Part shown: positions 783 to 21,847 of the stretch, piece after piece
How the letters are laid out: every line of letters starts with the position of its first letter
Numbering within the stretch: the first letter of the stretch is position 1
The notes under the pieces: model-generated
Database searches by the model: none
Seen by the model: the letters and a program-made list of their open reading frames with translations, nothing else
Told to the model about the DNA's origin: nothing
Source: an uncultured Thermoplasmata archaeon
GTDB taxonomy: Archaea; Thermoplasmatota; Thermoplasmata; Halarchaeoplasmatales; Halarchaeoplasmataceae
Assembly (NCBI GenBank): GCA_964454575.1
Contig: CAYVTG010000004.1
Location: 1 to 43,190, forward strand
DNA: 43,190 nt
Direction: 5' to 3'
Translations under genes and position numbers: made by a program

Positions 783-1880
783 TTATTCGATGATTATCCT
801 CAAGGTGTCTCCTTCCCGTAGAACATGATCTAACCCTATCTGCTGCTGTGGAAACCTTGCCGAAGGCCCCCATATCCGTGCATATCTGAATTTATCTTTA
901 AAATCGCTGTGTAATTTAACACAGACGTCCTCCACTGTAGCTCCGTGTTTTACTATCAAAGGCTCGTCGTCTCCCTTTTCCCCCTGAGGTCTCAGATATA
1001 TACGCATGAAATTCAATGAATCGAAGATGCGATCTTTGAGTTCATCGAGACCACGACCGTCCAGTGCTGAAATATAGATGGGATCCCACTCTTCGATGGT
1101 TTTGGACAATTCATCCAGATCATCTTTGCTGAACAAGTCTTCTTTGTTGATCACCGCGAAGGCCGGCACATAAACCCTGTTACCTCTTAGATGGTCTATC
1201 AAACCGTCCACGTCTATATCATCCCGTATGATTATATTGGCGTTTATGTGCCCGAAGACCCTCATCACTTCTTTTATAACTCCGGAATCCAGGTCAGTCA
1301 GTTCAACTGTACTGGCAACGTCTATCCCGCCACGCTCCTTACGGGATATCATTATATCCGGACCACTTTTGTTGAGTCGTATACCCATGGCCTCCAGTTC
1401 GTCTGCTATGGTATCTATGTCCGGTCTATGCACATCGCATACCATTATTATAAGATCCACAACCCTTACAACAGATAGTACTTCCCTGCCCCTGCCCTTA
1501 CCACTGGCGGCTCCCTTGACAAGCCCGGGTAGATCGAGTATCTGTATCTCGGCACCGTTGTGATGCATTACCCCCGGGATCACATCGAGTGTGGTAAAGT
1601 GATATTCCGCAACTTCACTTTTAGCGTTGGTCAGTTGGTTTAGCAGCGTACTTTTACCAACACTGGGATACCCGACGAAACCGACGGTGGCATCCCCCTC
1701 TTTCTTTACACCATACCCGCCTCCGGATGAAGTTCCCTTACCTTGTTTTTCCTGCTGCTCCTTTAGTTGAGATAGTTTAGCCTTCAATTTACCTATATGA
1801 AACTGCGTAGCTTTGTTGTAGGGAGTCTTCCTTATCTCCTCTTCTATGTTCTCTATCTCTTCCGCTATATCTGGACTCAT
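783..1880 (-). CDS. drg: DRG/OBG-family GTPase with TGS domain
   Basis: N-terminal TPYNKAT..HIG.LKAKL; G1 GYPSVGKS, G2 YHFTTL, G3 DLPG, G4 NKED; C-terminal TGS domain. Start placed at MSPDIAEE. Confidence 0.93.
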   Translation of the reverse strand: MSPDIAEEIENIEEEIRKTPYNKATQFHIGKLKAKLSQLKEQQEKQGKGTSSGGGYGVKKEGDATVGFVGYPSVGKSTLLNQLTNAKSEVAEYHFTTLDVIPGVMHHNGAEIQILDLPGLVKGAASGKGRGREVLSVVRVVDLIIMVCDVHRPDIDTIADELEAMGIRLNKSGPDIMISRKERGGIDVASTVELTDLDSGVIKEVMRVFGHINANIIIRDDIDVDGLIDHLRGNRVYVPAFAVINKEDLFSKDDLDELSKTIEEWDPIYISALDGRGLDELKDRIFDSLNFMRIYLRPQGEKGDDEPLIVKHGATVEDVCVKLHSDFKDKFRYARIWGPSARFPQQQIGLDHVLREGDTLRIIIE

Positions 1881-1948
1881 CGTATTACAGGCCTTCATCC
1901 TGCTACGGCGGATAAAAACTTATCGCAGGAAAAAGCAGCCATAAGGAT

Positions 1949-1963
1949 GAAAAGAAATATATA
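1949..1963 (+). promoter_or_regulatory. BRE/TATA promoter of the 5S rRNA gene
   Basis: GAAAAGAAATATATA lies ~25 nt upstream of the 5S helix I strand. Confidence 0.6.
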
Positions 1964-1992
1964 CCCCCTCTTAGTAATGACCACTTGAGTAA

Positions 1993-2213
1993 TATGACGG
2001 CCAAAGCGGTGGGGACACACCTGGTCTCATCCCGAACCCAGAAGTTAAGCCCACCCGCGTTCTCTGCGTTACTATGGTGCGCGAGCCCATGGGAAGCCTA
2101 GGTCCCTTGCGGACCCCCGGGTCGTTGGCTTAGGTTAGAAGCCTAGCTCCCTACGGGGAGACAGGTAAATCTAACTGTTTGAAGGCCATTTTCGATCCCT
2201 GGCCCGCTGTCAA
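1993..2213 (+). rRNA. rrf: 5S rRNA with ~100-nt insertion (about 2098-2200); mature ends approximate
   Basis: Canonical 5S motifs ACGGCCAAAGC, CATCCCGAACCCAGAAGTTAAGCC and helix IV ATGG-TGCGCGAGC-CCAT GGGAA. Helix I TGACGGC (1995-2001) pairs with GCTGTCA (2206-2212) and is extended by TGAGTAAT/ATTACTCA (1986-1993/2213-2220). A T-run follows at 2227. Confidence 0.93.
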
Positions 2214-2284
2214 TTACTCACTCTACTTTTTATCGATCAATCGATAAGCTAAACTAAAGCTTTAAAAATATTATAACTATGCCT

Positions 2285-3517
2285 TCACTTTATTATCCCA
2301 TAACCGAGTAGATGCCACTTACCGGCTATCCTTCGGCTGATAGATATACGCTGACCCGGATTTGCACACACAGCTCTTTTTAAATTCACTTCGGCTTCGT
2401 TACCTCTTGCCGATGCTACTACACCGACGGTAGCGGCTGTACCCACGATCAACATCAACGGTTCTCTTGTCTTGATGTTCTCTATCTCTATGTCACCGTC
2501 GACACCGACTACACGGTTCAGCAGATGTACTTCCATGACGAATTTTTCGTGTACCGGCGGTAGTTCTCCAGGGTAACTCAGAACGTGTCCCGTAAGAGAA
2601 TCCGCTCTGGTTATCGTCGGATCCATATATGTACCCAATCCGATCAATCCACCGGGTTTCGCTTTTTCCAATGTAATATTACCGGATGTAAGGGACTTGA
2701 TCGTAGTGATGTACCGACCCCATTTTGTCTCGCCTCCGGTATCTTCTTTGTAACCCGGTGCGATCTCGACTTCGTCACCGACAGAAAGTATACCCTGACT
2801 CAGTGAGCCTCCTACGACGCCTCCTTTGAGGTTTTCGATGGAAGTACCTGGCTGGTTTATATCGAAGGACCTTGCTATGTGCATCAACGGCACCGCGTCT
2901 TCATCAAGTTCAGGAGTAGGTATATTTTCCTCGATGGCCTGTATCAATACGTCTACATTAACATCGTGGTGAGCGGAAACTGGTATTATGGGTGCATCTT
3001 CAGCGATGGTATCCTTCACGAATTCCTTTATCTCCATGAAATTTTCCTTCGCCCTCTCCGACGTTACCAGATCTACTTTGTTCTGAACGATTATTATGTT
3101 CTCAACACCTGATATCTCAAGACCCATAAGATGCTCTTGTGTCTGAGGCTGTGGGCACTTCTCGTTAGCGGCTATCAAAAGGATCGCGCCGTTCATCATG
3201 GATGCTCCGGAAAGCATGGTTGCCATGAGTGTCTCGTGTCCCGGTGAATCGACGAATGATACTGTTCTGAGTAATTCGGTCTCTCCACCGCAGTTGGTGC
3301 ATTTCTTTTGTGTGGAATATGCTTGGCTGCCTTCACACTTTGAACATCTGTAAAATGCAGTGTCGGCGTATCCCAATCTTATGCTGATACCCCTCTTTGT
3401 TTCCTCGGAATGTCTGTCAGTCCACTCTCCACTCAGTGCCTTGGTAAGTGTCGTCTTACCATGATCCACGTGGCCTACCAATCCTATATTTATCTCAGGT
3501 TGATAAGGAACCTTCAT
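2285..3517 (-). CDS. eif2g: Translation initiation factor aIF2 gamma subunit
   Basis: [27 protein letters not shown], zinc-knuckle cysteines, [18 protein letters not shown]. Confidence 0.97.
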
Positions 3518-3995: not shown

Positions 3996-6410
3996 CTATC
4001 CCATCTGCTTGACTTTAGATACACCGTCATTCTTTTGCACTAAATATTCAACGTCAGCCAGATTGACTATCTCGTTTTCATGTGATACTATGACTATCTG
4101 ATCCGCAGTCACCTTTTCCATAACATCCTTCAAACGTGTCAACTGCTCACGGCTGAAGCCTGTGGTGGGCTCGTCCAGTACCAACAGATTGCTGTTCAGC
4201 CCCAACTCTTTTTTGATCATTGTATTGAACGCCAGCCGGTAAGCCAAGGCTACCGAAGTCCTTTCGCCGCCGCTTATATCGTCCACGGACGTAACATTGT
4301 TGTGAACGGTGATCGCCGGCGCAAAGTTTTCGTCTAGTGTGGCGTTTATATCCGGGTCATCCAGTATCTCGTCGAACCACACACGGAAGTAGGATTCAAA
4401 ATCAGTGTTCAACTGAGCCATCCGATGCTCCTCTATGGCTCGGATACATTCCTTGAAATCGTTGTTGAGCCAAGTTTTCAGATAATCAAGCTCTGCGGCA
4501 CATTTCTTAGATTCCTTCATATCCTTCAATCTATCTTCCAGTGTCTTTATCTCACTTTTTAATCGCTCTATATTTTTACCATGCGAGTTGATTTTTTCCT
4601 TGAGCATACTGGTCTCCCTTATCAGCTCTTCATGTTCTTTCTTGATCTCTCGGTAATCCTCTTCGGAGAACTGTTCATCCAGTTTTTCTAGTTTCGAGCG
4701 TATACTTTTCAGCATATCTTCTGTTTCCTTGAGCTTACCTTCCTTGTCCTTCTTCTTCCTCAGAAGTTCATCTTTCCGAGCGATCTTTTCTTTTAACAAT
4801 ATCTTCCTATCCCTGTACTTACGCAGCTCTTCGCGGTGCTTCACAAGTTCATTCAACTCTTCTTTGGTATGCTCAAACTTATCTATATTATCTTGAAATT
4901 CTTTCATCTTCTTCTCTGCCGACTCTACACTCTTTTCCATATCCGGTAGTTTTGCGAACTCTTTGGACAACCTTTCCATGTCCTTTTTTCTATAGCCGAG
5001 TTTTCTTTCGAGGTTCTTTTTTTCTTCCACGGTTTTACGTATAGTGTTTAGCTCTTTTTCCTTTTCCTCCAACGAGTCGTTTAAGTCAGACAATCTCCCC
5101 TCTACTTCTTCCTTGGATCTCCGCAGTTCATCCAGCATATTCTCTACGTGCTCTTCACTTAAAGATTGCCTGCACTTGGGACATTCTCCTTCACCTTCCA
5201 AACCAGCCATATCTTTGATCTCTTTATCCAAAGAACGTTTCTCCTTTTCGGCGGATTTGATATCCCCCTTCAGGTCAGTTATATCTGCCTGGATCATCTC
5301 CTTCTTATCTGTTAGTTTATCCAGATCACTAGTCTCTTCCTTCAGCGCTTCTATCTCTTCTTTGATCTCTTCCAGCCTTTTTCCTTGTTCTTGTAACTCC
5401 TCCAACTTTTCGGTAGAGTTCTTATGTTCCAAAGACAGTCTTTCCAGCTTTCTTTCCAAGGCAGTCCGTTCTTCGATCTCCTCTCTTACCTTCTCGACCT
5501 CTTTGCTTATCTTCTCGAATTCTTCAACGTACTTTCGTATCTTACCCAACTCTGCCTCCCCTTCCTTTATCTCTTCGAGCATTTTTTCCAGGTCATCTAT
5601 GCTCTCTTTCAGCGATCCGGCCAAGCTCTTGTGTCGCTCCGATCCCGAGAGCGCCTTCTGCTTTTCATCTTTTAATTCCTCCGCTTCCTTGACCTTAACA
5701 GTGGTAGTCTCCAGTGATCCTTTTTTTTCCTTCAAGTCCTTATCTAATTCCTGCTTATCTTCCACGGTTTTTACAAGCTCGTTCTTCTTTACTTCCAATC
5801 TCTCCTGCTCTTCCTCCATCCTCTCCGCTCTTGTAACCAACGTTAGTATCTCGTTTTCCAGTCCTCGCTTCACTACGGATACGTTATCCAGCGCCCTCTT
5901 GTATTCCTCAACATTGAATATCTTCCGTACCGCCTGCAGCCGCTCTTCATCCCTCATGGACAGTATGTTGTTCATCTGTTCCTGCGGAGTGAAAATGCTC
6001 ATGTGGAATGTCTCCACTTTACCTCTGCTCTTTTCTCGCAGTTTAAGAAGCTCAAGTATCTTCTCCCTCATCTCCTCAGGACTCAATTCGGTGATGACTC
6101 CGTCGCATGCCAGATGTGACTTATCTGGTTTCATACCGTTACTGGTCCTCTTTATACTCCTGTAAGCGGTGTAATCCGTATCATCAACGTTGAAAACTAA
6201 CTTCACACTGGCACTGTCCGAATTGTGTCGGGTTATCTTGTCGTAGAATCCCTGGTTGATGGCACCGAAGAGTACGAACTCCAGCCCCAACAGGATGGAC
6301 GATTTACCGGAGCCGATATCTCCCTGAAACAGCAGTATGCCTGGTTTGAAGTCTATGGATTCCTTTACATAACTACGTATATTCTCCAACTCCATATGCT
6401 TGAGCATCAT
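3996..6410 (-). CDS. rad50: Rad50 ATPase
   Basis: Walker A GDIGSGKSS, long coiled coil with central CPKC zinc hook, signature ISGGE, Walker B LVLDEPT, H-loop VSH. Confidence 0.95.
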   Translation of the reverse strand: MMLKHMELENIRSYVKESIDFKPGILLFQGDIGSGKSSILLGLEFVLFGAINQGFYDKITRHNSDSASVKLVFNVDDTDYTAYRSIKRTSNGMKPDKSHLACDGVITELSPEEMREKILELLKLREKSRGKVETFHMSIFTPQEQMNNILSMRDEERLQAVRKIFNVEEYKRALDNVSVVKRGLENEILTLVTRAERMEEEQERLEVKKNELVKTVEDKQELDKDLKEKKGSLETTTVKVKEAEELKDEKQKALSGSERHKSLAGSLKESIDDLEKMLEEIKEGEAELGKIRKYVEEFEKISKEVEKVREEIEERTALERKLERLSLEHKNSTEKLEELQEQGKRLEEIKEEIEALKEETSDLDKLTDKKEMIQADITDLKGDIKSAEKEKRSLDKEIKDMAGLEGEGECPKCRQSLSEEHVENMLDELRRSKEEVEGRLSDLNDSLEEKEKELNTIRKTVEEKKNLERKLGYRKKDMERLSKEFAKLPDMEKSVESAEKKMKEFQDNIDKFEHTKEELNELVKHREELRKYRDRKILLKEKIARKDELLRKKKDKEGKLKETEDMLKSIRSKLEKLDEQFSEEDYREIKKEHEELIRETSMLKEKINSHGKNIERLKSEIKTLEDRLKDMKESKKCAAELDYLKTWLNNDFKECIRAIEEHRMAQLNTDFESYFRVWFDEILDDPDINATLDENFAPAITVHNNVTSVDDISGGERTSVALAYRLAFNTMIKKELGLNSNLLVLDEPTTGFSREQLTRLKDVMEKVTADQIVIVSHENEIVNLADVEYLVQKNDGVSKVKQMG

Positions 6411-7657
6411 CGAGAACCACCTCCAAAATCGATCAGTGACACTTGCCCACCTTTTTCACCACTCTTTTTTTCCTTCGGTGCTTCGATATCGTTTATCAAA
6501 GTCCACGCGTTGCTCCATAATCGTTTTTCGTAGTCGTCCTTTCTTTCACCGTCCGCCTGCTCTACCTTCAATATATCCAGCAGCTCTCCGGCAAAGCCGA
6601 CATCGATACCTTCCGGAGTACCATATTCTTCGAGTAAACCTTCCTCTATCTTTTCGGTGCTCTCTTCGTTGATCTTGATCCTTTCCAGATTCTTCGCCGT
6701 CAGCTGCCGGTTGTTTAACAATACCGTCCCTGCTCCGTTTTCCTCCAATCTTTCCCGTACAGCACTGAAGTCTATATTGTTCGGCTCTCCTTCGGTGAGC
6801 TCACCGTGTATCTTTAGCAAGAATATATCACTATCTATCGGTCCCTCGCTGAGCTCTAGCAGAACCTCATCGAGCTCGCTTGCCTTCATCCCGTCGGCAT
6901 CTATATCCTTCCGCTGGATACTGCATACGTCTAGCTGTACGTATTCCGGAACCCAGTCGTCGACGATAAAGAATCCCCTGTGTTCCTCTTTTTCCAGGTC
7001 CGTATATGAAGAACCGAATGTCGCCCCGGGATAAGTCACGTGGACACCATCTTTATCATGCTCCAACCGTCGGTGTATATGCCCGCCGGCATAGTATCTG
7101 TATCCTTCCGGTAGTACGGAAATAGGCACAGTAGCAGATTCGTGGATATCGGCGGGCTTCATCTCGGCAACCGGCGTATGGAACACAAATATAGCATCTC
7201 CTTCCGGCTCTTGGAAATCCAGCTCTCGATAGTAACTGGCATCCATACGATTCTTCCTGCCGCTCAACCCGGCTATGTATATACCGGAGGAATCCTTCAC
7301 ATGTTCCAGAGAGCCCTCCTCGTGGAGATATTGTACCACCTTTTTGAATACCTCCGCGCTCTCTAGTACATCGATCAAAGAGGCCTTGGCGATGTTGAAA
7401 TCGTGTGAGCCGTAGACCGCGTAGATTCTGATACCCTGGTTCCTGGCATCTATCATGGCCTTTACGGCCCGGTTAACAACGTCCATATCCGGGTGTGGAT
7501 TGTGGAATAAGTCTCCGGCGATGATGATCAATTCTACTTCCCTATCGATGCATATCCGTATGGCCTCTTCGAAGGCCTTCAGATTGTATTCTCTCAATTC
7601 AGGACTGCGCCCGAAAGCACCTAGATGACAGTCTGCCATATGTGCGAACTTTACCAT
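6407..7657 (-). CDS. mre11: Mre11 nuclease
   Basis: Phosphoesterase motifs ADCHLG, AGDLFH, GSHD, FHT, GGHIH; overlaps the rad50 start. Confidence 0.95.
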
Positions 7658-7661
7658 ATCT

Positions 7662-9161
7662 TCACCCTATGAACTCCAGCTTTCTTTTCTTGATACCTTC
7701 TCGTTTCACAACATCATCGAATAGGTCGATCTTTATAGGCACTGCGAACTTGGTGAATATACTGCTGACGATGGCTTCTCCCTTGTCCAGACTCGCGATG
7801 TTCTTACCATCTTTGGAAAGATCCTGTGCAGCACTGCCGATGATCGCCTCTCTTTCGCTCTTCATCTCGTTTCCCAAGATGATCTTAGTGTTCATGTTGG
7901 CCAGTATCTCCCGGGGTATCATGCTGGAGAGCTGAGTTATTGCGATCAGACCGACCCTGAACTTTCTTCCTTCCCTGGCTATCGTATGGAAAACGTTCCT
8001 ACCGCCCCGGTCACCCAGCACCCTTGGAGCTTCTTCGATGACCACGCTGATGGTGGGCTTGTCGTCCAACTCACCGTGTTCTTTGTATTTCTTGTACCTC
8101 CTGAATATCTCGTCTGTAATCATCCCGGCGATGAGTAATTCCTTGTCACCGGACATGGAGCTGGTATCCAGTATCACCTTTTTACCGCTCTCCATGGCAT
8201 CGGCTATATCTCGTATCAGATCGTTTGTCGTCTGGGTAACGAATATATTTCCCCTTGCCCTCACCTCTCCACCATCTGTATGGATATCCAGAGACAACCG
8301 CAGTTTACGCTGTATGACTTCCAGCGTTATACTCTGTATCCCGAAGTTGTCTCCCTGTGGATCCGCGGTCAATATGGCTTCCAACCAGTTACTTCCGTGA
8401 TGATTGTAGAATACATACATGGCCTGGCTCTGAGCCTCAGTAACATCTATTATCCCTCGTAGATTCCACGGTCTGAGCAGCGTGATATTGACCCTGAGGC
8501 TGTATCCACCTTTAGGCGGATTAGGTGAATAGTACAGTACCTTATCTACCGCATCGGGATGGTCCTTTATACCAGGCTCGTTGCGCCCGAAGTATTCGTC
8601 GTGTGGATCTATAACTAGTATCCCGCACCATTCCCTGAGAACCATATCCCAAAGCATAACCTTGACCAGGTTACTCTTACCGCGTCCGGTGGTAGCCGGT
8701 ATCAAAATATGGTGAGAAAGTGCGTCTCTGCCGTTTATATTCACGGGAACGTCGAGAACCGCACTTCCACTCCGAACACGGCCCAGATAAAGACTGTTAG
8801 CCGGTTTCTCCATGAATTCAAAATCGTCGTTATCTGCCCTGTTCACGGTACCGAAAAATCCCGGCAGTGTCTTTGGTATCTTCGGTACTCCGTCCTTCAC
8901 GTGCACAAGAGGCTTCGCCTTAGCCGTCACAAAATTCCTTATCTCCTCCTCCATAAGCGCCGTTTCTTCGTAGCCTTCCAATTGCATACCGCTCATCCTT
9001 GCCAGATCCGTTGCTTCCAGCAGAGTCCCGTAGGCAAGGTCGTAAACCTGCAGTATTATATCGTCTATCGATAACAGATCACCGATCTCTATTATCTGAC
9101 CGCTTTTCTGTCTAACGACGAGCTCGCCGTATTCTCCGCCTATTATCTGTCCTAAAACCAT
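7662..9161 (-). CDS. herA: HerA helicase/translocase
   Basis: N-terminal HAS barrel, Walker [28 protein letters not shown]. Confidence 0.92.
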
Positions 9162-9171
9162 CTTTCTTCAC

Positions 9172-10188
9172 CTAAATATTGCTCAATATATCATGGGCAT
9201 TCATGGAGTTTATCCTGTAGCGCATCGAGCGTCCCATGGCGCCCATGCCTACCGTTTTAAGATATTCTACTTCTTCGTCCGTTACTCTAGCTCTTTTATC
9301 CGCGTCAACGAGACCGTACGGATATCCCAGGAATATTGGATCCCTTGCCTGGAGCGCCAATTCGGCCAATGCCTCTGCGGCGAATCCCTGCTCTCTGTAA
9401 AACTCCGTGCGGAAAACATAATCTGAATCAGGATGATACTTTACCACATACATCTCGCCCTTGTGGTCAGGATGCTTGTTCTCTGCGATAGGATGATAGT
9501 ACCATCTGCCGCTCTCTCTTTCATCTGCCATCATCCTGATGGCCGCAAGCAGCGGATATCCTTTCGTGGTCATCAAGGAACTCGTCTTCGCCAAACCGAC
9601 CATACACACACCTTTCTCCATACAAGCACGGTATACGTCGTCTGCATAGTGCCTTTCTTCCTCTACACTCGTTTGGAGCACTCCGTCCTTCACCAGTATG
9701 TCCCCATCCACCAGATATTCTTCGGTTGCATACTTCATCACCAGCCATTCCAGATATCTTCGTACAGTATGGCCGGCGTTCTTCATACCTCCTCCGTTGA
9801 CATCATCGGCGTTGAGTACAAATTTAAGCTCTTTCAAAGGGATAGACGAATTGATGGGAAATAACTCAGAATGTATCTTATCATCCACCGGCTTAGACAC
9901 CAGATACGCGCTCAGCGGCTCTATGTTCCTCACCCTTTTAGTTCCCTTGAAGAGGTTGAAATACACCCGCAGCAGATGAATACTCTCCGAGGGCGACTCG
10001 AATATAGTGTTGTTGCCTCCGTCCACACTGCACACGACCCGCTCCCCGCCGGCAAGCTCAAAGTCGACAAAATTATCAACAGACAAAGCTACCGTCTCGT
10101 AATATTGTGATTGTTTGAAGTACGGACTGCCCCATTCTCCCGGAGTATAGTCCATCTTTCTCAGCAGGCGCAGTAATTCCTGGATCAT
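9172..10188 (-). CDS. nurA: NurA 5'-3' nuclease
   Basis: VDGG, LVKDG.L, GLAKTS, GYPYGLVDAD..ARV; first gene of the herA-mre11-rad50 operon. Confidence 0.88.
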   Translation of the reverse strand: MIQELLRLLRKMDYTPGEWGSPYFKQSQYYETVALSVDNFVDFELAGGERVVCSVDGGNNTIFESPSESIHLLRVYFNLFKGTKRVRNIEPLSAYLVSKPVDDKIHSELFPINSSIPLKELKFVLNADDVNGGGMKNAGHTVRRYLEWLVMKYATEEYLVDGDILVKDGVLQTSVEEERHYADDVYRACMEKGVCMVGLAKTSSLMTTKGYPLLAAIRMMADERESGRWYYHPIAENKHPDHKGEMYVVKYHPDSDYVFRTEFYREQGFAAEALAELALQARDPIFLGYPYGLVDADKRARVTDEEVEYLKTVGMGAMGRSMRYRINSMNAHDILSNI

Positions 10189-10324
10189 TATACCTATGGT
10201 ATAACCTATGCATACTTAAAGGTTCACGGTGGGGGTGGAGTGAAAGTGAGAATACACAAATTTTAAATTGGTTAGAATCTATGTATTTTTTAAACAAATA
10301 TCGGTGGATAAGTTGAATAAAAAG

Positions 10325-10609
10325 ATGAAAAAGATCGAAGAGATCATCGAAAGTCACAAGCCTATACTCAAAAAAAGGTACAAGGTTAAGGAGATCGGAC
10401 TTTTCGGTTCATATGTTCGCGGAGAAGAACTTGAGGGTAGCGACCTTGATATCTTGGTCGAATTCGATGATACTATAAGTCTTTTTGAATTTGTAGAGCT
10501 GGAGAGTTATTTGGAAGAGATATTGGACATTAAGGTAGATCTGGTCATGGAAAGTGCCTTGAAGCCGAGGATCGGAAGATATATCAAAAAGGAAGTTGTT
10601 TACGTATGA
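10325..10609 (+). CDS. Minimal nucleotidyltransferase (MntA-type antitoxin)
   Basis: GSYVRGEELEGSDLDILV matches GSx10DxD; VDLV motif; ATG at 10325. Confidence 0.92.
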   Translation: MKKIEEIIESHKPILKKRYKVKEIGLFGSYVRGEELEGSDLDILVEFDDTISLFEFVELESYLEEILDIKVDLVMESALKPRIGRYIKKEVVYV

Positions 10610-10953
10610 GTAGAGATTACGGAGATTACCTAGAGGATATTTTGTACTCGATAGATGCTATAGAAGAATTCACATATGGACTAGATTTAGAAGACTTTTT
10701 AGAAGACAAAAAAACTGTTTTTGCGGTTGTTCGCTCCTTTGAGATAATAGGCGAAGCAACTAAAAACATTCCTTTTGATATCAGAGAAAAATATCCTTAC
10801 GTTCCATGGAAAAATATGGCTGGAATGAGGGATGTGGTAATACATGGATATTTTGGTGTGGATAACGCAGTTATCTGGAAAACGTTAAAAGAAGATATAC
10901 CCGGTTTGAAAGGAAAAATCAAAAGAATCCTTGATGATCTCGACACAGGTTAG
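10606..10953 (+). CDS. HEPN/DUF86 ribonuclease toxin (HepT-type)
   Basis: EIIGEA and RDVVIHGY (Rx4HxY); ATGA overlap with the MNT gene. Confidence 0.92.
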   Translation: MSRDYGDYLEDILYSIDAIEEFTYGLDLEDFLEDKKTVFAVVRSFEIIGEATKNIPFDIREKYPYVPWKNMAGMRDVVIHGYFGVDNAVIWKTLKEDIPGLKGKIKRILDDLDTG

Positions 10954-11010
10954 TCAAAGTTTGACGAACAGTCATCTTGTATAAAGGTATAATATAATTG
11001 AAACTATAAT

Positions 11011-13983
11011 TTAGTCACCATTCTTCCTGAACTTGGTCTTTCTTTTTTTGCCTATTATCGCCGCTACTATAGCTACCGCTATTACAGACATCATCAATAT
11101 AGGCAACCGGTAGTGTGTTATCAATCCGACGATGCCGGATGTTTCTTCGGCCGCTTCCCCCCCATCGGGCCCTTCCACAAGGATAGTTAAATAGTCTCTT
11201 CCCGATTGGAATCCCCCTTTTGTAGCCGCGAATTCAAGAGTATATCTCTGTAAACTGCCCGCTTCAACTCCCTGCGCATGGAATGTCACTGTAACGGTCT
11301 CACCATTTGATATATGTAAGGGAAAGCTTTCTTCAAACCCCGGATCACCTACATTGGGATGTATCATCACCGTGATGGATACGTTTTCTACTTCATCAGG
11401 GGAATTCAATTCCAGCGTTATGTTCGACTTTTCATCGTTTTGAATTATATCATAGTCCACTTTTGCATCTAGAGATAATATTGGTAGATTCTCCGGATAT
11501 ACCTTTATCATAATAGTATGGGACTCCCCACTTTTAACCAATCCTACTTGTAATGTTACAATTGTAAAGTCATATACATTCGGTGCGGTAAAAGTAGCGT
11601 TCAAAACACCCATGGAATCTGTAATAGGCTCACCCTTTGTCTCGAATAGAGCACCCTGATCTGTATGTGTTGTGGTCAGTACCAACTCTTGGTCAGGCAT
11701 GGCATAGCCATTTTCGTGGAACAACCGGATAGTAACATTGTGTTCTGTTCCCAGGCTGACAGCAGATGGGGCTGAGACGGAAATTGTCAGATCCGAAGAA
11801 ATTCCCTTTCGAACATATGCATATGAATATAGGTTGCAGATACCACCGGGCCAGGGAACCCAACCGGTCCATTCATTGCGATATGTATGAACATAGCTTC
11901 TGGAATACAATACATTGTAAGGAAGTTCCTTTGATATGATACCTTGGAGCTGCTTGACCAATTTAATCCTTCTATCTGGATCCATCTCTTTTTCTGCTTC
12001 TTCGATTATCCTATCGAATTCTTTTGACCTTAACCCCGGGTAGTTATGACCTCCGGACCTGTCGTTTCTAGAATGAAAAAGAGATTCTAAAATTGTCAAG
12101 GATTGGTATTCTGTTATCTCCCATCCTCCTATGTAAACATCAAAATACGCTCTACCTGGATCTAATTGATTATCTATAAAATATTGTAAAATATAACTAT
12201 ATACTTGTATCTGCACACCACATTCTTTACGAAGGGTGTCGACAACAAGCTGGCCCACTTTAGCCTCATTGTAATATGAACCCGGAGTATATAAATAGAA
12301 TGTACTAGTGTCTTCATAGATGTTACCATCAGCATCTCTTCGGGGTATGGGATATACCGCAGGGGCATCTTCTGCCTTCCAAACTGTGTTGAATCCGTTA
12401 AATTCGTTTCGCCAAATCTCGTTCTGTTCTTCCAATAATTGTTTGGTCATCCCCAAGTCGTGTGCATATCTTTCCACGGTCGAATTATGATACTGAGCGT
12501 TATCCGGCGGTACCACAGACCATCCTACCGAACCAAAACCTTGCAGATAATTATTCACTATGTACGATTTATCCGTCGCATGGGTGATCGCCTGTCTAAA
12601 CTTTAGACTTATATCTTCTCCGTACCAAGTACCCAGTTCTTCTCCAGCCCCGGGATAATCCTTGTAACCGAAGGCTGGTTCCCTCATGTTAAATCCCATA
12701 TATGTAAAACCGAAATTAGGTGTAGACATAATATCCAAATCGGGATGTTGCTGAACACGGGAGATATAGCCGGAATCGATCGGCCACGATAGTACATCCA
12801 AATCTCCTCTTTCAAGAGCTATAACCGCAGAGTCAGTGGTACTTCTTATCAAAAACCGTAACCCGTCAATGTTTGAACGATGATCAAGTCCTTTCAAACT
12901 CATACCATAAGGTCGATGGATATCTCTTGAGCCGTCTACCCAATAATCCGGATTCTTGATCAATTCCGAGCCTATACCAGGATCCCATTCGTGCCACATG
13001 AATGGACCGTTGCCAACTATCACTTTGCGCTGGTCCTCTATGCTGCCTCCTTGCCCCAGATCCCGGCTAAGAGCATAATTTAAACCTGTATCCACCAATG
13101 TATGTTCTGCCCATACTTTCATGGATAAAGGCATCGGTAAAGTCGTTAGATAAAACATTGAGTAAGGCCTCTCCAGTTCAAATCTGATACTGTAATCGCA
13201 CATATGCCTGTCTGGATCTTCAGGCATGGAGTACAGCTGCATTCCCTCGTACATTCCAGTACCGCCATTGACCACCCAGTTGCTGTCTCCGGCATCTCTT
13301 CTATCACCCAATGGTTCTTGGACAAGAGGCAAGAAACCTGACATATACTGTGGCGCATCCCATTGTAACATCTCTCCGGAGAAGACCACATCGTGGGCAG
13401 TTGCTTGTCTCATTTTACTCATGGGCATGGAGAAGGACGGGTTCTTCGGAGACTGCCACGTATCGTCTTCCCATGCATCCGCCCGGTGGAACAATATGCC
13501 AGCCCTGATCCTTACTATAACTTCGAGGTTTCCGCTGGGTAAAGCTTCGTTTTCTACAGTGTCCGGGTTTGGATCTATATATGCCTGTGAAGGATCGTAA
13601 ACTCCGTTGACGTAATTTAACGATGGATCGTAGGTCCCCTCTCCGCTGGGTCCCACGGGGCTCCAATCGTATGCCATCCAGGGGATCACCAATTGTGTTT
13701 CTTCGTGATACATACTCAAACCGCTGTATATCGGATCCCTGGCAGCCATGGAGCTCCAAAAGTTCTGTATGGTCAGAGGGTTTAGATTCTCGATGGGACT
13801 GTGAATTCCTATCTTCAGATAGTTCTCTGAACGTGTCGCTGAATCATAATCTCTTTTCGGGATCTGCTGTGTACCGGATGCTACGATACTGGTTATTATC
13901 AAAAGAACTACGATGGATATTGAAAGAATTACGAGTGCGTTACTGATTTCCTCCCGTGAATAGGATTTGTTTTTTTTCATCAT
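11011..13983 (-). CDS. Family-5 (OppA/DppA-like) ABC substrate-binding protein with C-terminal Ig-like domains and membrane anchor
   Basis: N-terminal TM/signal, LNPL, TA.DV.FS, GNGPF, NPDYW, FRQAI.HA.DK; beta-rich C-terminal extension; TM helix plus basic tail KKRKTK. GGTGG precedes ATG 13983. Confidence 0.85.
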   Translation of the reverse strand: MMKKNKSYSREEISNALVILSISIVVLLIITSIVASGTQQIPKRDYDSATRSENYLKIGIHSPIENLNPLTIQNFWSSMAARDPIYSGLSMYHEETQLVIPWMAYDWSPVGPSGEGTYDPSLNYVNGVYDPSQAYIDPNPDTVENEALPSGNLEVIVRIRAGILFHRADAWEDDTWQSPKNPSFSMPMSKMRQATAHDVVFSGEMLQWDAPQYMSGFLPLVQEPLGDRRDAGDSNWVVNGGTGMYEGMQLYSMPEDPDRHMCDYSIRFELERPYSMFYLTTLPMPLSMKVWAEHTLVDTGLNYALSRDLGQGGSIEDQRKVIVGNGPFMWHEWDPGIGSELIKNPDYWVDGSRDIHRPYGMSLKGLDHRSNIDGLRFLIRSTTDSAVIALERGDLDVLSWPIDSGYISRVQQHPDLDIMSTPNFGFTYMGFNMREPAFGYKDYPGAGEELGTWYGEDISLKFRQAITHATDKSYIVNNYLQGFGSVGWSVVPPDNAQYHNSTVERYAHDLGMTKQLLEEQNEIWRNEFNGFNTVWKAEDAPAVYPIPRRDADGNIYEDTSTFYLYTPGSYYNEAKVGQLVVDTLRKECGVQIQVYSYILQYFIDNQLDPGRAYFDVYIGGWEITEYQSLTILESLFHSRNDRSGGHNYPGLRSKEFDRIIEEAEKEMDPDRRIKLVKQLQGIISKELPYNVLYSRSYVHTYRNEWTGWVPWPGGICNLYSYAYVRKGISSDLTISVSAPSAVSLGTEHNVTIRLFHENGYAMPDQELVLTTTHTDQGALFETKGEPITDSMGVLNATFTAPNVYDFTIVTLQVGLVKSGESHTIMIKVYPENLPILSLDAKVDYDIIQNDEKSNITLELNSPDEVENVSITVMIHPNVGDPGFEESFPLHISNGETVTVTFHAQGVEAGSLQRYTLEFAATKGGFQSGRDYLTILVEGPDGGEAAEETSGIVGLITHYRLPILMMSVIAVAIVAAIIGKKRKTKFRKNGD

Positions 13984-14048
13984 TTCCACCTAACATCATG
14001 TATATTATTTTACGTTTATTTATACTTTTCTTAAATAATCTAAAGATT

Positions 14049-14107
14049 AAGCTTTAATTAAATAATACCTTAATACCATAAAGCTTTAATACTATTATAC
14101 CTTAATA
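14049..14107 (+). repeat. Two 27-bp direct repeats (32-bp period) in the divergent promoter region
   Basis: AAGCTTTAATtaaataATACCTTAATA (14049-14075) versus AAGCTTTAATactattATACCTTAATA (14081-14107), 23/27 identical. Confidence 0.75.
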
Positions 14108-14113
14108 TGAAAC

Positions 14114-14383
14114 ATGGATCTGGACGAATTCAACCACACCGCAAGGATACTTGGTCGTAAGCACGTTCCCGCAGTACTCCGGAAGATATCCCACAAGGGA
14201 ACCATCAAGGCCAGCGACCTTGCATCTTACGTTGGTATAACCGTGGCTACAGCAGTGAGCTACCTGAACGACCTTGAATCCATAGGGATTCTAGAAAAAG
14301 ACCATGTTCAAGGGGAAACCGGTGAGATATGGATCTATAGGATCGCCGATCCAAAGATTTCCTTGGAGACGGTCATCGAATGA
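14114..14383 (+). CDS. ArsR-like winged-helix transcriptional regulator
   Basis: ASDLASYVGITVATAVSYLNDLESIGIL helix-turn-helix followed by a wing (IWIYRI). Confidence 0.75.
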   Translation: MDLDEFNHTARILGRKHVPAVLRKISHKGTIKASDLASYVGITVATAVSYLNDLESIGILEKDHVQGETGEIWIYRIADPKISLETVIE

Positions 14384-14749
14384 AGCCTGATGTATATGCA
14401 CATAGTGTGCAAATACACCCGTAAGCATATATGGTCTAATAGTATATATAGTAACGTATCTGCCTAATAGTAAGCTTATATGGGTTAACACTCAATATTG
14501 CGTCATCAACACAAAACCACAAACGAACATTAACAAGCGACAAATTAACAATACTGTTTAACGCAACATGTTATTAACAATTATCATTAACACACACCTT
14601 TGCAATAACACCGCAAAACACCCCTAAATAACAAAACTTTACAAGAACCTTTTTTTTCACTGCAGACCCTAGGGTAAACAACGGAAATTTGCCCTTTCGT
14701 GAAGTTTCACTAGTGAGCCCCCACAACGTATATATACCCCAAATAAAGG

Positions 14750-14777
14750 ATGTCGTAAAATGTATCTTATACGACGT
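14750..14777. other. Candidate tyrosine-recombinase (Xer/dif-like) site
   Basis: ATGTCGTAAAA-TGTATC-TTATACGACGT: 11-6-11 layout, arms 9/11 inverted match, spacer close to the TGTATA spacer of E. coli dif. Confidence 0.55.
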
Positions 14778-15115
14778 TAAGTATTTATACTAAAACCTAA
14801 GACGTCGGATTTACTAATACAAATTACGAACATAATTTTTTCGAAAAAATTTCCCGGAAAAACAAATATATTCTGTAAAATATCTAAGTGCAGGAAAATC
14901 CGGCAAAGATCTTCCGAAAACACAATTGTAGTATAAATGCATAACAATGGGTAACCCTATCATCGCATTAAATAAACCACTAAACCAAACAGCCAAATAA
15001 TAAATAATAAAAAACAATTCACGAACATGTTGAATATACACAAAACCACGATTTACCCATACACCAATAATATGTATACCTTTACCACAACCGCACAAAT
15101 AATACTTTAAAACCA

Positions 15116-15517
15116 TTAATCATAATATTTCAGCCAATCGCCGGACCTGATCAAGTACTCTTCCTTAGCAAAAGAACTACGTAGTTTTCTACCGGCTACG
15201 TAACAATAGGCCTTGGTCTTCTTACCGTCGGAAAGTTCTACCTTTACGATGGTCCGTTCGAAGAAAGGCTCTGCCTGGCTTGCACCTTCGATTATGTCAT
15301 ACTTGTCCAGCAGGGTATCTATCTCACTACAAACAAAGAGTTTACCTTTCACCCGTCCGTCTCCTTCGAGAACAAGGAAGGGAAAACCCTCTACGGCATA
15401 AAGAGTTCCTTTAACGCTTGCTGTTTTAGTTTCCTCTATATATCTTGAAGCGTTTATCCCGTGGCTGGGCTCCTCATCTTCGAAAAGGAGGGTTCCGTAC
15501 GCGAATAGATTGTTCAT
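15116..15517 (-). CDS. Gamma-glutamylcyclotransferase (AIG2-like) family protein
   Basis: LFAYGTL, FP.LV, V.G.L, D.IEG, A.CY; start at MNNLFAYGTL. Confidence 0.85.
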   Translation of the reverse strand: MNNLFAYGTLLFEDEEPSHGINASRYIEETKTASVKGTLYAVEGFPFLVLEGDGRVKGKLFVCSEIDTLLDKYDIIEGASQAEPFFERTIVKVELSDGKKTKAYCYVAGRKLRSSFAKEEYLIRSGDWLKYYD

Positions 15518-15618
15518 GCAATACCTTATTATGCATACATCGTGCATATATAGTTATCGAACAGATATCAAAAACCGATGCGGATAGACTTTTATATTGC
15601 ATCCCAATAGACGAAGGA

Positions 15619-16674
15619 ATGGTAACTGGTATCCTTGAAGAAGACAAAGTTATAGTATCCGACGAAGGCGACGGAAACACGCTCTACAACAAAGGATACT
15701 TCGGTAAGCCTATGTCCGGAGGCGGATTGGAACTAGAGCTCTACGAAGCCCTGCATCTAAAAGAATCTAATCGGCTGGACATACAAGATGTAGATGGTAC
15801 CGAACTTTCCCGAAACCAATTGATGAAAAAGCTTGTGGTCATGGATCCAAGGATGGTAGTTAATTATCCCGTTTACAGTGAGATGAGATCCCGAGGATAT
15901 ATACTAAAAAGCGCATCCAAACCTGCAGATTTTCGTGTATTCCCCAGAGGAGGCGGACCCGGTAAATCCCCATCCCAGTATTGGCTGGTGTCAAAGGCGG
16001 AAACAGATACATTCTCCATCAAAGAGTTTCAAGATATCTCACACCGGATCTATCAGATAAAGAAAAAACTCATCACCGGATTGTTGGATGAAGAAGGTGA
16101 TGTAACTTATTACGATATATCGACTATTGACTTAAAAGGAACGACAAAAAAGTTTCAATTGAATTCCCCCATAGAAGGTATCGTATTCGGTGATAAATGT
16201 TACCTCGGCGAAGAAGGTCTTACACTACATGAACAAGGATTCTTCGGACACGAATACGACGGTGGGCTCCAACTATCACTCGTGGAGACACTATTTCTTA
16301 TGGAAGAAGATGTTCTCACGGTAATGGAGGGCAAAAACGCGAAACCCATGGACAAAGCATCATTGAAGAAATATGCAGACAACATCCAGAAGGATTTTCC
16401 ACTTCGTTATACAATATACAAGGATCTTAGAACTAGAAAGATGATACCCAAGACAGGATTCAAGTACGGTACGGCTTTCAGATGCTATGTGGGGAATCCT
16501 GACGAATATCATGCAGAATTCATGATCCAACCGGTAGAACCGGAATTCACATGCAGCTGGTATGACGTTAGTAGAGCTGTTCGTGTTGCACACACGGTAA
16601 GAAAAACATTTGTTTTTGCAAGAAATACGAAGGAAGGAACAGTTTATCTGAGGATAAAAAGGCAAACACCCTGA
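15619..16674 (+). CDS. endA: tRNA-splicing endonuclease, two-unit (alpha2) type
   Basis: Duplicated LEL.EAL / LSLVETL units; the C-terminal unit has KTGFKYG..FR.Y, H and VRK catalytic residues; start at MVTGIL. Confidence 0.92.
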   Translation: MVTGILEEDKVIVSDEGDGNTLYNKGYFGKPMSGGGLELELYEALHLKESNRLDIQDVDGTELSRNQLMKKLVVMDPRMVVNYPVYSEMRSRGYILKSASKPADFRVFPRGGGPGKSPSQYWLVSKAETDTFSIKEFQDISHRIYQIKKKLITGLLDEEGDVTYYDISTIDLKGTTKKFQLNSPIEGIVFGDKCYLGEEGLTLHEQGFFGHEYDGGLQLSLVETLFLMEEDVLTVMEGKNAKPMDKASLKKYADNIQKDFPLRYTIYKDLRTRKMIPKTGFKYGTAFRCYVGNPDEYHAEFMIQPVEPEFTCSWYDVSRAVRVAHTVRKTFVFARNTKEGTVYLRIKRQTP

Positions 16675-16678
16675 TATC

Positions 16679-16963
16679 TCAGTTTTCCTTCAATTTTTCT
16701 CCCAGCTTTATCAAAAATTCGTGTTTAGATATATTCTGTTTAGCGATGATGATCCGTCCGTTGTTTTCGTACCAAGTCCTGGGATGACTTGCATTCTTTT
16801 CAACACGGTTCGGTATCTCGTAAGAATTGAGTACCTTGTTTATCTCTTCGACGGTGGGACCTTTGACGGCGATAGTTTTTGGTACTCTTCTACACTCAGA
16901 TCTTGAAAATCGTTTATCAAAGTACTCCGGATAGATCACCCAAGTCTTCCTTTCCCTGGCCAT
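16679..16963 (-). CDS. srp19: Signal recognition particle protein SRP19
   Basis: VIYPEYFD...SRSE.RRVPK..AV..PT.EEI, HPR.W, GRI. Confidence 0.92.
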   Translation of the reverse strand: MARERKTWVIYPEYFDKRFSRSECRRVPKTIAVKGPTVEEINKVLNSYEIPNRVEKNASHPRTWYENNGRIIIAKQNISKHEFLIKLGEKLKEN

Positions 16964-16964
16964 C

Positions 16965-17345
16965 CTAATCCTCTAGGGAAATAGCGTTTATAACACCATC
17001 TTTACCGGGCTTCGATGTTATCTTGGCTCTACCCCGGGGCGTGTCGATTATGGCACCCTTTGTGAGGATATTCCTCTGAACGTAGTTAGGATTAGCCGGA
17101 TTCTCTACGACGTTTTGGATCATAACACGGACTACCTTTCCATCGGACGTTGAAAGATTAGCATGTTCCGCACCCATGACCTTTGTCTTTTGTCTTCCAC
17201 CTCTTCCTCTCATAGACTTATTTTTATGTGTGGCTATCACCGCAGGATGAAAATCTGTTCCTAGCTCGAACTTCCTCTTTTTGCGGTAGTGTCTGCGTCG
17301 TCCGCCGGTTATCTTTCTTCTTGATTTTGCTTGCCACATCGTCAT
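16965..17345 (-). CDS. rps8e: 30S ribosomal protein S8e
   Basis: SRRKITGG, RKKRKFELG, RGRGG, NPAN..YV.RN.LTKGAII.T, PG.DGVINA. Confidence 0.96.
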   Translation of the reverse strand: MTMWQAKSRRKITGGRRRHYRKKRKFELGTDFHPAVIATHKNKSMRGRGGRQKTKVMGAEHANLSTSDGKVVRVMIQNVVENPANPNYVQRNILTKGAIIDTPRGRAKITSKPGKDGVINAISLED

Positions 17346-17377
17346 CTTTAGGCCTCAGGAACGTTTCAGTATAAGTG

Positions 17378-17974
17378 TCATATATAAGGCTTTTCCTCTT
17401 CCTCATGTATAAAATGGATGGATGATACCAATAGAGCGGCCATAAAAAGTGAGAAAACCACACCGCCTAAGATGCCGGTAAAAGTTCTCATGGGATTGTT
17501 ACTCTCGTAATCCGTCAGCAGCTGAATAAATCCATCTGCAGCCATGGGCGAGATCAACGCTGCACCGAAGAACACCATCACCAACCTCTTCTTCATAGGG
17601 GACAGATGCTCTGTTTTCATGGGGACCAAACTCAACAGCATATCTTTGTAGTCTTCCTTCGGATCAACGAACATCATCACAAAGAATCCCATGGTCAATC
17701 CGATAAAGATCCCCACACAACGGGCACAGACAGGTACCTGGTTACCGTTGATAGAATATGATCGTTCGTGCATCTGATGACAGTTGAAGTCGCTGAAAGT
17801 GTAAACGGCTGCATGATACGGCGATAGCTCGCGCCATAGGTCCATGTAATCGACCCGGTTCGCAGCACCGCTCAACCCCTCTACAGTTCCCGGTTCCATG
17901 GTAAGGGGTGCGATGAAAAGACTTGAAGTATATAAAAATGCTAAAATGAACAAAACGAGTGATACCCTGTTCAC
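17378..17974 (-). CDS. DUF2085 membrane protein
   Basis: CHQ..ERS...NG.Q.PVCARC.GI, DG..Q, SNN.MR..TG. Confidence 0.85.
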   Translation of the reverse strand: MNRVSLVLFILAFLYTSSLFIAPLTMEPGTVEGLSGAANRVDYMDLWRELSPYHAAVYTFSDFNCHQMHERSYSINGNQVPVCARCVGIFIGLTMGFFVMMFVDPKEDYKDMLLSLVPMKTEHLSPMKKRLVMVFFGAALISPMAADGFIQLLTDYESNNPMRTFTGILGGVVFSLFMAALLVSSIHFIHEEEEKPYI

Positions 17975-17975
17975 T

Positions 17976-19214: not shown

Positions 19215-19250
19215 CTGATTCCACCTATCGTGTAGACATATATAAGTTTT

Positions 19251-20666: not shown

Positions 20667-20719
20667 GGAAAGCTAGTTTGTATTACGGTTAAAAACAATA
20701 TAGGTTTTTTGTACGGTGC

Positions 20720-21847
20720 TCATCTCAATCTTTCCACTGCCTTTTCAAGCAGTTCTAAGCCCACGGAGAATGAAAATCTGACGATATCGTCCCCTTTATC
20801 ATGGTAAAAACTGCTGCCTGGAACCACTGCCACTTTTTTTTCTCGAACCAAATATTTTGCAAAGTCTATGTCGTTCATACCGAAGGAATCTATGCCTGCC
20901 ATCATGTAGTAGGCGCCGTGGGGCAGTATCGGCTCGAATCCAATATCCGTAAGATTATCGAACAGAAAATCCCTGGCCTCTCTATAACTCGCCAACATCT
21001 TTTCGTAGTATCCATTGGAGATATGTTCTACCTCTTTGAGTGCATCTTGGAAAGGGGTCGGTGCACATATAGTTGTATAGTCGTGTACCTTTCTTATCGG
21101 TACCATCAATTCTTTCGAAGCGGAAGCGTACCCTACCCGCCACCCGGTTACAGAGTAAGTTTTGGAAAAACCGTTCAAAGTCACGGTCCTTTCCCGCATA
21201 CCGTCAAGATTGCCTATGGATATATGATCTCCCTCATAAACGATCCGCTCGTAGATCTCATCGGAAAATACAAGAACGTCGTTATCCACACAAAGATCTC
21301 TGATCAGTTCCAGCTCTTCTCGCCGGAAGACCTTTCCCGAAGGATTGTGAGGTGTATTCAATATGATGGCCTTTGTGTTCTTACCTATCTTGGCTTTCAG
21401 ATCCTCTTCGTTTAACCCGAGCTCCCTATCGATGTCGGTATAAACCGGCTTACCGGATGCCAGTGAAACCGCCGGCACATAATTTTCGTAGTGGGGCTGA
21501 AATATCAACACCTTTTCACCGCTGTCTACATGGGCAAGAACGGAGGACATCAGAGCTTCACTGGTACCGCATGTAACTGTTATCTCGTTTTCCGGATCAT
21601 AACTCATCCCGTTGAAATCCGCTAACTTTTTTGATATATATTCTCGGAGTTCCCTAAGACCCCAAGTTATGGAATACTGATTTTTGTTCTTAAGACTCTC
21701 GAAGACTGCTTCCATCACATCTTTCGGTATAGGATACCCCGGATAGCCTTGAGATAGATTCACAGCATCGTATTTCTCCGCTTCTCTTGTCATCTCCCTG
21801 ATGACCGACTCAGGAAATCCCTTTACCCTTGATGCCTCTCGTTTCAT
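20720..21847 (-). CDS. Class I/II PLP aminotransferase
   Basis: NLSQG.P, NTPHNPSG, SDEIY, SKTYSVTGWRVG, VRFSF. Confidence 0.93.
   Translation of the reverse strand: MKREASRVKGFPESVIREMTREAEKYDAVNLSQGYPGYPIPKDVMEAVFESLKNKNQYSITWGLRELREYISKKLADFNGMSYDPENEITVTCGTSEALMSSVLAHVDSGEKVLIFQPHYENYVPAVSLASGKPVYTDIDRELGLNEEDLKAKIGKNTKAIILNTPHNPSGKVFRREELELIRDLCVDNDVLVFSDEIYERIVYEGDHISIGNLDGMRERTVTLNGFSKTYSVTGWRVGYASASKELMVPIRKVHDYTTICAPTPFQDALKEVEHISNGYYEKMLASYREARDFLFDNLTDIGFEPILPHGAYYMMAGIDSFGMNDIDFAKYLVREKKVAVVPGSSFYHDKGDDIVRFSFSVGLELLEKAVERLR

Follow-up and report, generated by a model that had tools for sequence, protein, structure and literature searches.

Does the 5S rRNA gene near the start of the 43,190-nt DNA stretch analyzed here (the window; contig CAYVTG010000004.1) specify an oversized ribosomal RNA, or is the additional sequence within it excised, non-functional or spurious? 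The window is part of a metagenome-assembled genome (MAG) of a halo(alkali)philic Thermoplasmata archaeon from a salt lake. The initial annotation, made from the DNA letters, recognized a 5S rRNA of ~220 nt rather than ~120 nt and offered two explanations for the insert: an independently acquired expansion segment in a non-haloarchaeal lineage, or an intervening sequence that is removed by processing. The finding proved to be real and not an artifact. The most plausible interpretation is a 5S expansion segment of the Halococcus kind that is kept in the RNA, here in a second archaeal class: with a probability of roughly 0.8 the gene is functional, is the only one for 5S rRNA in this halophilic Thermoplasmata archaeon, and yields a transcript that keeps a 108-nt expansion segment (ES) at the Halococcus insertion site.

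Anatomy and fold of the expanded 5S rRNA gene

The window contains a single 5S rRNA gene at positions 1987–2219 of the forward strand (233 nt), to which all 5S features below also belong. The Rfam model RF00001 matches positions 1993–2114 with 73.9 bits, compared with a gathering score of 38, which assigns the gene to the 5S family. The end of this match at position 2114 is forced, because several of the nine helix I pairs that the model places are flagged as non-standard. The true helix I is formed in the minimum-free-energy (MFE) fold by positions 1995–2001 (TGACGGC) and 2206–2212 (GCTGTCA), comprises 7 bp including one G-U, and uses the same strands in all aligned relatives. The canonical core (helices II–V, loops C and E) is intact up to the GGGAAGC motif that ends at position 2097, as the initial annotation had read it. 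Positions 2006–2058 form helices II and III and loops B and C in both the Rfam alignment and the MFE fold; positions 2059–2097, where alignment columns are invariant or nearly so, contain the 5′ strand of helix V, loop E up to the GGGAAGC at the end of its 3′ strand, and helix IV, which has a GCGA loop. The ES follows at 2098–2205, flanked by the loop E 3′ strand on one side and the 3′ strands of helices V and I on the other. The 3′ strand of helix I therefore appears only at position 2206, again as noted initially, and the gene measures 218 nt from helix I to helix I, vs. 116–118 nt in relatives with a normal 5S rRNA. An expanded 5S rRNA was defined by Stepanov and Fox (2021) through an insertion of at least 13 nt in an otherwise intact core; the insertion here is 108 nt, and the normal 5S genes read in 17 genomes of other families lack it.

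Positions 1987–1993 (GAGTAAT) pair with 2213–2219 (ATTACTC) to extend helix I by 7 bp, with A1994 bulged, and the RNA is therefore expected to be ~233 nt long (1987–2219). A contig from an RNA library also ends at position 2219. The corresponding strands in relatives are GAGCAAC/GTTGCTC, and thus two compensatory double changes separate these from the window. The terminal helix has 7–10 additional bp in ES-bearing genes of the window's order and 8–9 in those of families f7, f8, and f16 (families are denoted by the letter f throughout), compared with mostly 2–4 in the normal 5S genes that were sampled, one of which has 7. This prolonged helix might represent another small expansion or a stem used in processing.

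The MFE fold of the whole 233-nt RNA preserves the core helices, while the ES forms helices of its own and leaves the core undisturbed. The fold has z = -3.41, with 0 of 200 shuffled sequences folding as well, and the ES alone folds to -44.3 kcal/mol (z = -2.15). Two elements make up the segment. The first, ES-a (2101–2115), is a 5-bp hairpin with the strands GGTCC/GGACC. The second, ES-b (2119–2198), is a long unbranched arm of five stems (2119–2124/2193–2198, 2126–2130/2184–2188, 2133–2139/2170–2176, 2141–2144/2163–2166, and 2147–2151/2156–2160) that is capped by a UACG tetraloop (2152–2155), UUCG in many relatives. The arm is interrupted by an AAA bulge (2167–2169) and by an asymmetric internal loop in which U2131 and A2132 oppose GUUUGAA (2177–2183).

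Covariation across relatives, which the initial annotation had put forward as a check, supports this arrangement. Among 33 distinct sequences from the order, 96.9% of alignment cells were paired and 13 of 32 pairs changed on both sides (81 cells); the covariation score was reached by none of 500 column shuffles, and pairing collapsed when the partners were slid by one column. Across families, 26 of the 32 pairs changed on both sides (142 cells) in a 39-sequence alignment that was fitted to the structure, which favors that structure. Hairpin ES-a was 100% paired within the order, with G-C replaced by A-U in two sequences, and all five of its pairs changed on both sides across families. Of the fold proposed initially, the stems GGTCC/GGACC, GGGTCG/CGATCC, TGGCT/GGCCA, and CTCCC-UACG-GGGAG covary within the order and are real. 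The inner part of that proposal, consisting of the hairpins TAGGTT/AGCCTA and ACAG/CTGT in a multibranched insert, was wrong: only 75.5% of the cells in these hairpins were paired and no compensatory changes were evident, vs. 99.2% paired cells and both-side changes in 5 of 11 pairs for the nested stems GGTTAGA/TCTAACT enclosing GCCT/AGGT. Thus, the insert is two-armed, with a small hairpin and a long arm, and is not multibranched.

Within the order, the GUUUGAA side of the asymmetric loop hardly varies; in other families the loop is recognizable as YA/G-Y-U-N-N-A-A. UA/GUUUGAA is a candidate docking site. A kink-turn reading of this loop was examined by eye and found no support for the Thermoplasmata type, as the position expected to be G is occupied variously by G, U, or A.

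The position of the ES relative to helix V was delineated with the aid of other families. In f4, f7, f8, f15, and f16, the 3′ strand of helix V (GGAAC, GGTAA, or AGAGC) comes after the ES, and GGAAC and its variants pair with GUUCU at the start of helix V (2059–2063 in the window). Therefore, the ES is located inside the 3′ strand of helix V beside loop E, which generates a four-way junction, composed in the predicted fold of the inner and outer parts of helix V together with ES-a and ES-b. In the window's order the strand after the ES is GGCCC (2201–2205), which alignment with other families identifies as a remnant of the helix V 3′ strand. Three of its five pairs are possible (G2059-C2205, C2062-G2202, and U2063-G2201), and U2060 and U2061 face C residues.

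Occurrence within the order and across Thermoplasmata

One genome per species was scanned with a 23-letter motif that spans the border between core and insert, which yielded 36 loci. Twenty-six of these are 5S genes in MAGs whose titles give Thermoplasmata or Thermoplasmatota; Ca. Saliniplasma, Ca. Haladaptatiplasma, and Ca. Halarchaeoplasma halalkaliphilum are included. The record titles support the placement of the expansion segment in a non-haloarchaeal lineage. The other 10 loci (L034, L040, L043, L046, L048, L049, L051, L055, L058, and L060) are chance matches to a conserved stretch in bacterial coding DNA, which by eye resembles the ...ADEPTGNLD... segment of ABC-type ATPases.

A search of 61 related genomes with RF00001 produced a 5S match in 57, all of which were read with their flanks. 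Every one of the 33 matches in f1, the family of the window, was of the expanded kind; 32 display the ES and one is cut by a contig end upstream. Among the 24 genomes of other families with a match, seven have an expanded gene (f4, f7, f8, f15, and f16; 214–230 nt from helix I to helix I) and 17 have a normal one. No normal archaeal 5S gene was found in any ES-bearing genome in this set of 61. The order consists of the single family f1, and the ES is present in 37 of its 44 genomes. The seven without an ES match comprise G025, in which the 5S gene is cut at a contig end, G001, G008, and G029, which lack a 5S match, and G172, G175, and G176, which are 53–78% complete and were searched with the ES model only. 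No normal-length archaeal 5S gene was seen in the genomes of the order. An apparently normal 5S gene in G014 (L006, contig C155) accompanies the end of a bacterial 23S gene on a short contig, is itself bacterial, and represents contamination of the bin.

Structure-based searches extended this distribution. Model R1 was built from the ES of the order alone, and model R2 describes the insert alone; both match the window at 2098–2205, with 105.6 bits. R1 also finds inserts in other families, with 54.3 and 50.2 bits in f4, 34.3 in f16, 31.1 in an f25-like contig, 28.3 and 26.3 in f8, and 26.7 in f15 (E-values from 4e-13 to 2e-5). R2 detected exactly one match in each of 58 of 151 genomes that were drawn evenly from the class. 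These genomes belong to 11 of the 29 families sampled and to several orders: f1 (15 of 17 genomes), f4 (15 of 15), f8 (9 of 10), f15 (3 of 4), f16 (1 of 1), f20 (4 of 4), f22 (2 of 3), f24 (2 of 2), f25 (4 of 4), f27 (1 of 1), and f29 (1 of 1). A further family, f7, has a divergent insert that the class-wide R2 search missed and that an unfiltered search recovered with 19.8 bits (E = 0.003). R2 gave no match in f6 (0 of 16 genomes), f11 (0 of 15), f18 (0 of 12), f9 (0 of 8), and f10 (0 of 7), among others. The ES is 100–113 nt long in most of the other families sampled and about 120 nt in f15, and it also is present in the metagenome contigs L132, L178, L196, and L206. The content of acidic and basic residues and isoelectric points were calculated from raw open reading frames of at least 150 amino acids in 7–20-kb stretches, in which shadow reading frames in GC-rich DNA distort the values, and no conclusion on halophily is drawn for other families.

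Retention of the segment and alternative explanations

The presence of the ES in RNA was assessed in two metatranscriptome runs, whose contigs were aligned to positions 1960–2260 at 85% likeness. In run X1, from an alkali sediment, a 224-nt contig with a depth of 265 covers 2005–2219 with 11 differing letters and no gaps, and depth is even across core and insert (241–318). The flanks at 1960–2003 and 2224–2260 are not covered, which argues weakly against carry-over of DNA. In run X2, from a salt lake, core and insert are covered up to position 2190, and loose ends of the contigs continue as the inserts of relatives. Depth in the ES bins between 2114 and 2190 is 4,620–24,150; this run consists of many short contigs from several relatives, such that the depths of core and ES are not comparable. 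No spliced joint was seen in the contigs of either run, although contigs can miss rare forms.

These results bear directly on the second explanation offered initially, namely that the insert is an intron or intervening sequence, either spliced with ligation by the archaeal splicing endonuclease or excised to leave a fragmented 5S rRNA, with a mature 5S rRNA of normal size. As with archaeal rRNA introns, the extra sequence lies inside an archaeal rRNA gene, and Stepanov and Fox (PMC7812874) point out that, unless RNA data are available, an insertion in a 5S gene might have to be regarded as removable in the manner of rRNA introns or intervening sequences. Removal of ~2099–2200 would produce the 3′ end GGGAAGCC-TGGCCC-GCTGTCA, which lines up with the normal 5S rRNA of family f3, and the contigs are unable to exclude a spliced form. 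However, a joint was seen in neither RNA run, and the X1 contig spans the whole insert at core-like depth, 265–318 throughout. In contrast to archaeal rRNA introns, moreover, a script scan for the bulge-helix-bulge motif, a 4-bp helix between two 3-nt bulges, revealed none with flanking helices at the borders of the ES: the candidates at (2094,2199), (2095,2198), and (2097,2201) have only 0–1 bp on each flank. The internal structure of the segment covaries, and its distal stems, loops, and tetraloop are under selection over many families, which would be unexpected for a discarded spacer. Taken together, the missing joint, the missing bulge-helix-bulge, and selection on distal parts of the insert favor a retained ES, and removal of the insert is an unlikely explanation.

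Decay of the expanded gene into a non-functional copy, with a working normal 5S gene missed by draft assemblies, is considerably less probable again. The window's genome is 94% complete in 133 contigs, rRNA genes often are missing from MAGs, and bacterial 5S remnants that carry insertions are described by Stepanov and Fox (PMC7812874). Nevertheless, the count of 5S copies that the initial annotation had suggested returned no second 5S match anywhere in the genome of 1.87 Mb. The pattern repeats itself, with one expanded gene apiece, in 37 of the order's 44 genomes and in 58 genomes of the class, including the single-contig genomes G073 and G164, and the RF00001 search identified no normal archaeal counterpart in those ES-bearing genomes that are among the 61. 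The core motifs are invariant, covariation reveals purifying selection on structure, and cover in the RNA libraries is high. The possibility that the insert arose in assembly or binning, which the initial annotation had named as a potential refutation, is hardly credible: the insert recurs with substitutions and compensatory changes in MAGs from many separate record series (the 26 archaeal records), in metagenome contigs, and in contigs from RNA libraries, each assembled independently.

Certain points weigh against retention of the segment in a functional 5S rRNA of this organism. The RNA evidence consists of assembled contigs, which are mute on RNA ends, strand, and rare spliced forms, and DNA can occur in RNA libraries. 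The best X1 contig, with 11 differences from the window in 215 letters, therefore originates from a relative and not from the window organism itself. All of the genomes are MAGs, and service of the long form as the ribosomal 5S rRNA is a step that we infer. As the 3′ strand of helix V is degenerate, with two U-C oppositions, the junction in the window may differ from the four-way model, and the 5′ strand of ES-a could pair instead with the 5′ strand of helix V, as in the Rfam alignment. The preferred explanation nonetheless remains a retained expansion segment. In the mechanism envisaged, the ES would fold by itself into a small hairpin and one long irregular arm, and together with the two halves of helix V would establish a four-way junction that leaves the 5S core intact. 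By analogy with the Halococcus ribosome, the arm would project from the solvent side of the central protuberance. The UA/GUUUGAA asymmetric loop and the A-rich bulge may be contact sites for a protein or 23S rRNA, and the most likely role of the conserved loops would be as contact points on the ribosome surface.

The 5S gene stands alone between genes for a DRG-type GTPase (783–1898, reverse strand) and aIF2-gamma (2285–3517, reverse strand), and is unlinked here from 16S and 23S genes. The aIF2-gamma gene adjoins the 5S gene in the window and at 14 other loci of the order (L017–L030), and in no sampled locus of another family; the synteny thus is confined to the order. A TATA-like A/T-rich box (AAATATATA, 1956–1964, forward strand) is situated ~25 nt upstream of the first paired base of the RNA and is the putative archaeal promoter of this stand-alone gene. 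Downstream, a run of five T residues (2227–2231, forward strand) is a putative archaeal terminator; T-runs also are found 10–20 nt past the gene in relatives. Three tRNA genes are present elsewhere in the window: Thr (TGT; 25684–25755, forward strand), Gln (TTG; 33178–33252, reverse strand), and Asp (GTC; 36857–36932, forward strand).

Relationship to the Halococcus-type expansion

Stepanov and Fox (2021; PMC7812874) report archaeal expanded 5S rRNAs from Halococcus, Halalkalicoccus, Halomarina, and Halodesulfurarchaeum only. All are described there as one structural type, in which 108 nt are inserted between positions 104.1 and 105 (Luehrsen 1981 as cited in PMC7812874). This is the sole archaeal site given, and it is considered free of steric hindrance (PMC7812874). 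For Halococcus morrhuae the 5S gene is cited as NZ_AOMC01000054.1, 66311–66541 (PMC7812874). The insert of this species is reported to be retained in the RNA (PMC7812874; PMC7530397), and a four-way junction and flexible arm were seen in the ribosome of this species (Tirumalai 2020; PMC7530397). The patchy distribution among haloarchaea was attributed to horizontal transfer from an unknown source (Stepanov and Fox; PMC7812874). 'Thermoplasma' does not appear in the main text of that paper, and literature searches on 5S expansions and on the names of the lineage found no report of an expanded 5S rRNA in Thermoplasmata, the supplementary lists and alignments of Stepanov and Fox lying outside their coverage.

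A comparison set of haloarchaeal expanded 5S genes was recovered from metagenome contigs (L121/L144, L157/L158, L159, L166, L186, L207, and L220). The search pattern was loose and retrieved at least 120 loci; among the matches listed, 18 of 120 were 5S-like and nine of these, and hence at least nine, were haloarchaeal expanded genes. Plasmid-borne haloarchaeal 5S genes match only the core, at query positions 6–103. Alignment with haloarchaeal expanded and normal 5S genes corroborated the proposal that the window insert occupies the Halococcus site. In both types, as aligned with L121, L157, and L159, the ES starts 4 nt after the GGGAAR of loop E, and the helix V 3′ strand comes next. The length likewise is 108 nt in both, with a predicted four-way junction in the window, and the haloarchaeal inserts of the comparison set measure 113–120 nt by our own delimitation. 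The layout also is shared: a small tetraloop hairpin is accompanied by a long arm with, in order, ~11–14 bp, an asymmetric loop that is longer on its 3′ strand, a stem of 6–7 bp, a bulge of 3 nt rich in purines, a stem of 4 bp, and a hairpin at the distal end. In the haloarchaeal consensus fold, the stems on either side of the asymmetric loop have about 14 and 6 bp, respectively, and are succeeded by 3-nt bulges. In each case the expanded gene is the only 5S gene in the genome, and the hosts, in the order of the window, also are halophiles. Standard annotation truncates the gene in both cases through a false helix I strand, in accord with the description of shortened genes in which part of the ES is taken for the helix I 3′ strand (PMC7812874). 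Rfam also shortens haloarchaeal and f4 expanded 5S genes, to 119–123 nt (L121, L159, L223, and L224).

The two types differ in other respects. The host class is Thermoplasmata and not Halobacteria, the phylum differs too, and the 5S core of the window is of Thermoplasmata type (TGACGGCC...GCTGTCA) and not haloarchaeal (GGCGGCC...CGCCGCC). The distribution in Thermoplasmata is far wider and deeper, at 11–12 of 29 sampled families in several orders. The window's order also stands apart in its degenerate helix V strand past the ES and in a helix I extended by at least 7 bp.

Similarity between the inserts themselves is marginal. R1 did not match the haloarchaeal inserts. R2 scored 15.4 bits with L159, 11.9 with L186, and 11.8 with L121, in full-length alignments positioned exactly on the insert, with E-values of 0.006, 0.045, and 0.049, respectively, in a 3.4-kb targeted search and 0.04–0.3 in 22 kb. 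The other four of the seven haloarchaeal loci gave 2.9–5.0 bits. The reciprocal haloarchaeal model, R3, scored 9–12 bits with Thermoplasmata inserts (best 12.1 and 11.7), which is within the noise level of 13.7. In plain alignments one of four sequences, L159, attained z = 2.8, a score that 7 of 300 shuffles reached, and the other three were not significant; genuine Thermoplasmata homologues likewise escape this test. Judged by eye, GCCCAGG...CGC and CCGUU..AACGGC are common to L159, L186, and families f15, f22, and f25. The haloarchaeal inserts separate into two loop subtypes, CA/GUUACAA (L159 and L186) and CGA/UGUCGA (L121, L157, L166, L207, and L220), of which the former is the one that resembles the Thermoplasmata inserts. 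The loop of the second subtype appears kink-turn-like by eye: a G-U pair closes a GGACCC/GGGUCU stem, and a GUC bulge of 3 nt and then GA opposite GA come after it. Archaeal L7Ae binds kink-turn motifs.

As site, length, and layout match but profile similarity is marginal, a common origin with the haloarchaeal ES is possible. Specifically, the Thermoplasmata and Halococcus-type segments may be one ancient RNA module that arose early in a large Thermoplasmata branch, in which it now is clade-wide, and that passed to a few haloarchaeal genera by lateral 5S replacement or recombination in hypersaline anoxic sediments, with the asymmetric loop binding a shared ribosomal component. This proposal is tentative and is judged to have slightly less than an even chance of being correct. 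Bacterial expanded 5S rRNAs offer a more distant parallel. In Thermoanaerobacterium and others, inserts also fold as independent helical modules beside an intact core, but they are described at other sites (helix III bulge, loop C, helix IV, and others), usually are shorter, often exist beside normal copies, and are patchy at strain level (PMC7812874).

Oversized 5S rRNAs are much commoner in archaea than the literature indicates, because many families of the class share this arm. Whereas published surveys place the archaeal examples in four haloarchaeal genera only and treat them as a curiosity, here the expanded form is the standard 5S rRNA of a whole order and is carried by more than one third of the species sampled from a second archaeal class; in every case the insertion is at the single position that is considered free of steric hindrance on the archaeal ribosome. 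A single case thereby becomes a comparative data set, in which dozens of sequences that covary allow structure and constraints to be examined in genes that routine annotation, by Rfam and genome pipelines, truncates. Natural, well-tolerated large RNA modules grafted on 5S rRNA also are of interest for ribosome engineering. Finally, the origin of the Halococcus insertion becomes a testable question: both groups live in hypersaline anoxic sediments, and a single shared module, if true, would explain the patchy distribution of expanded 5S rRNAs among haloarchaea.

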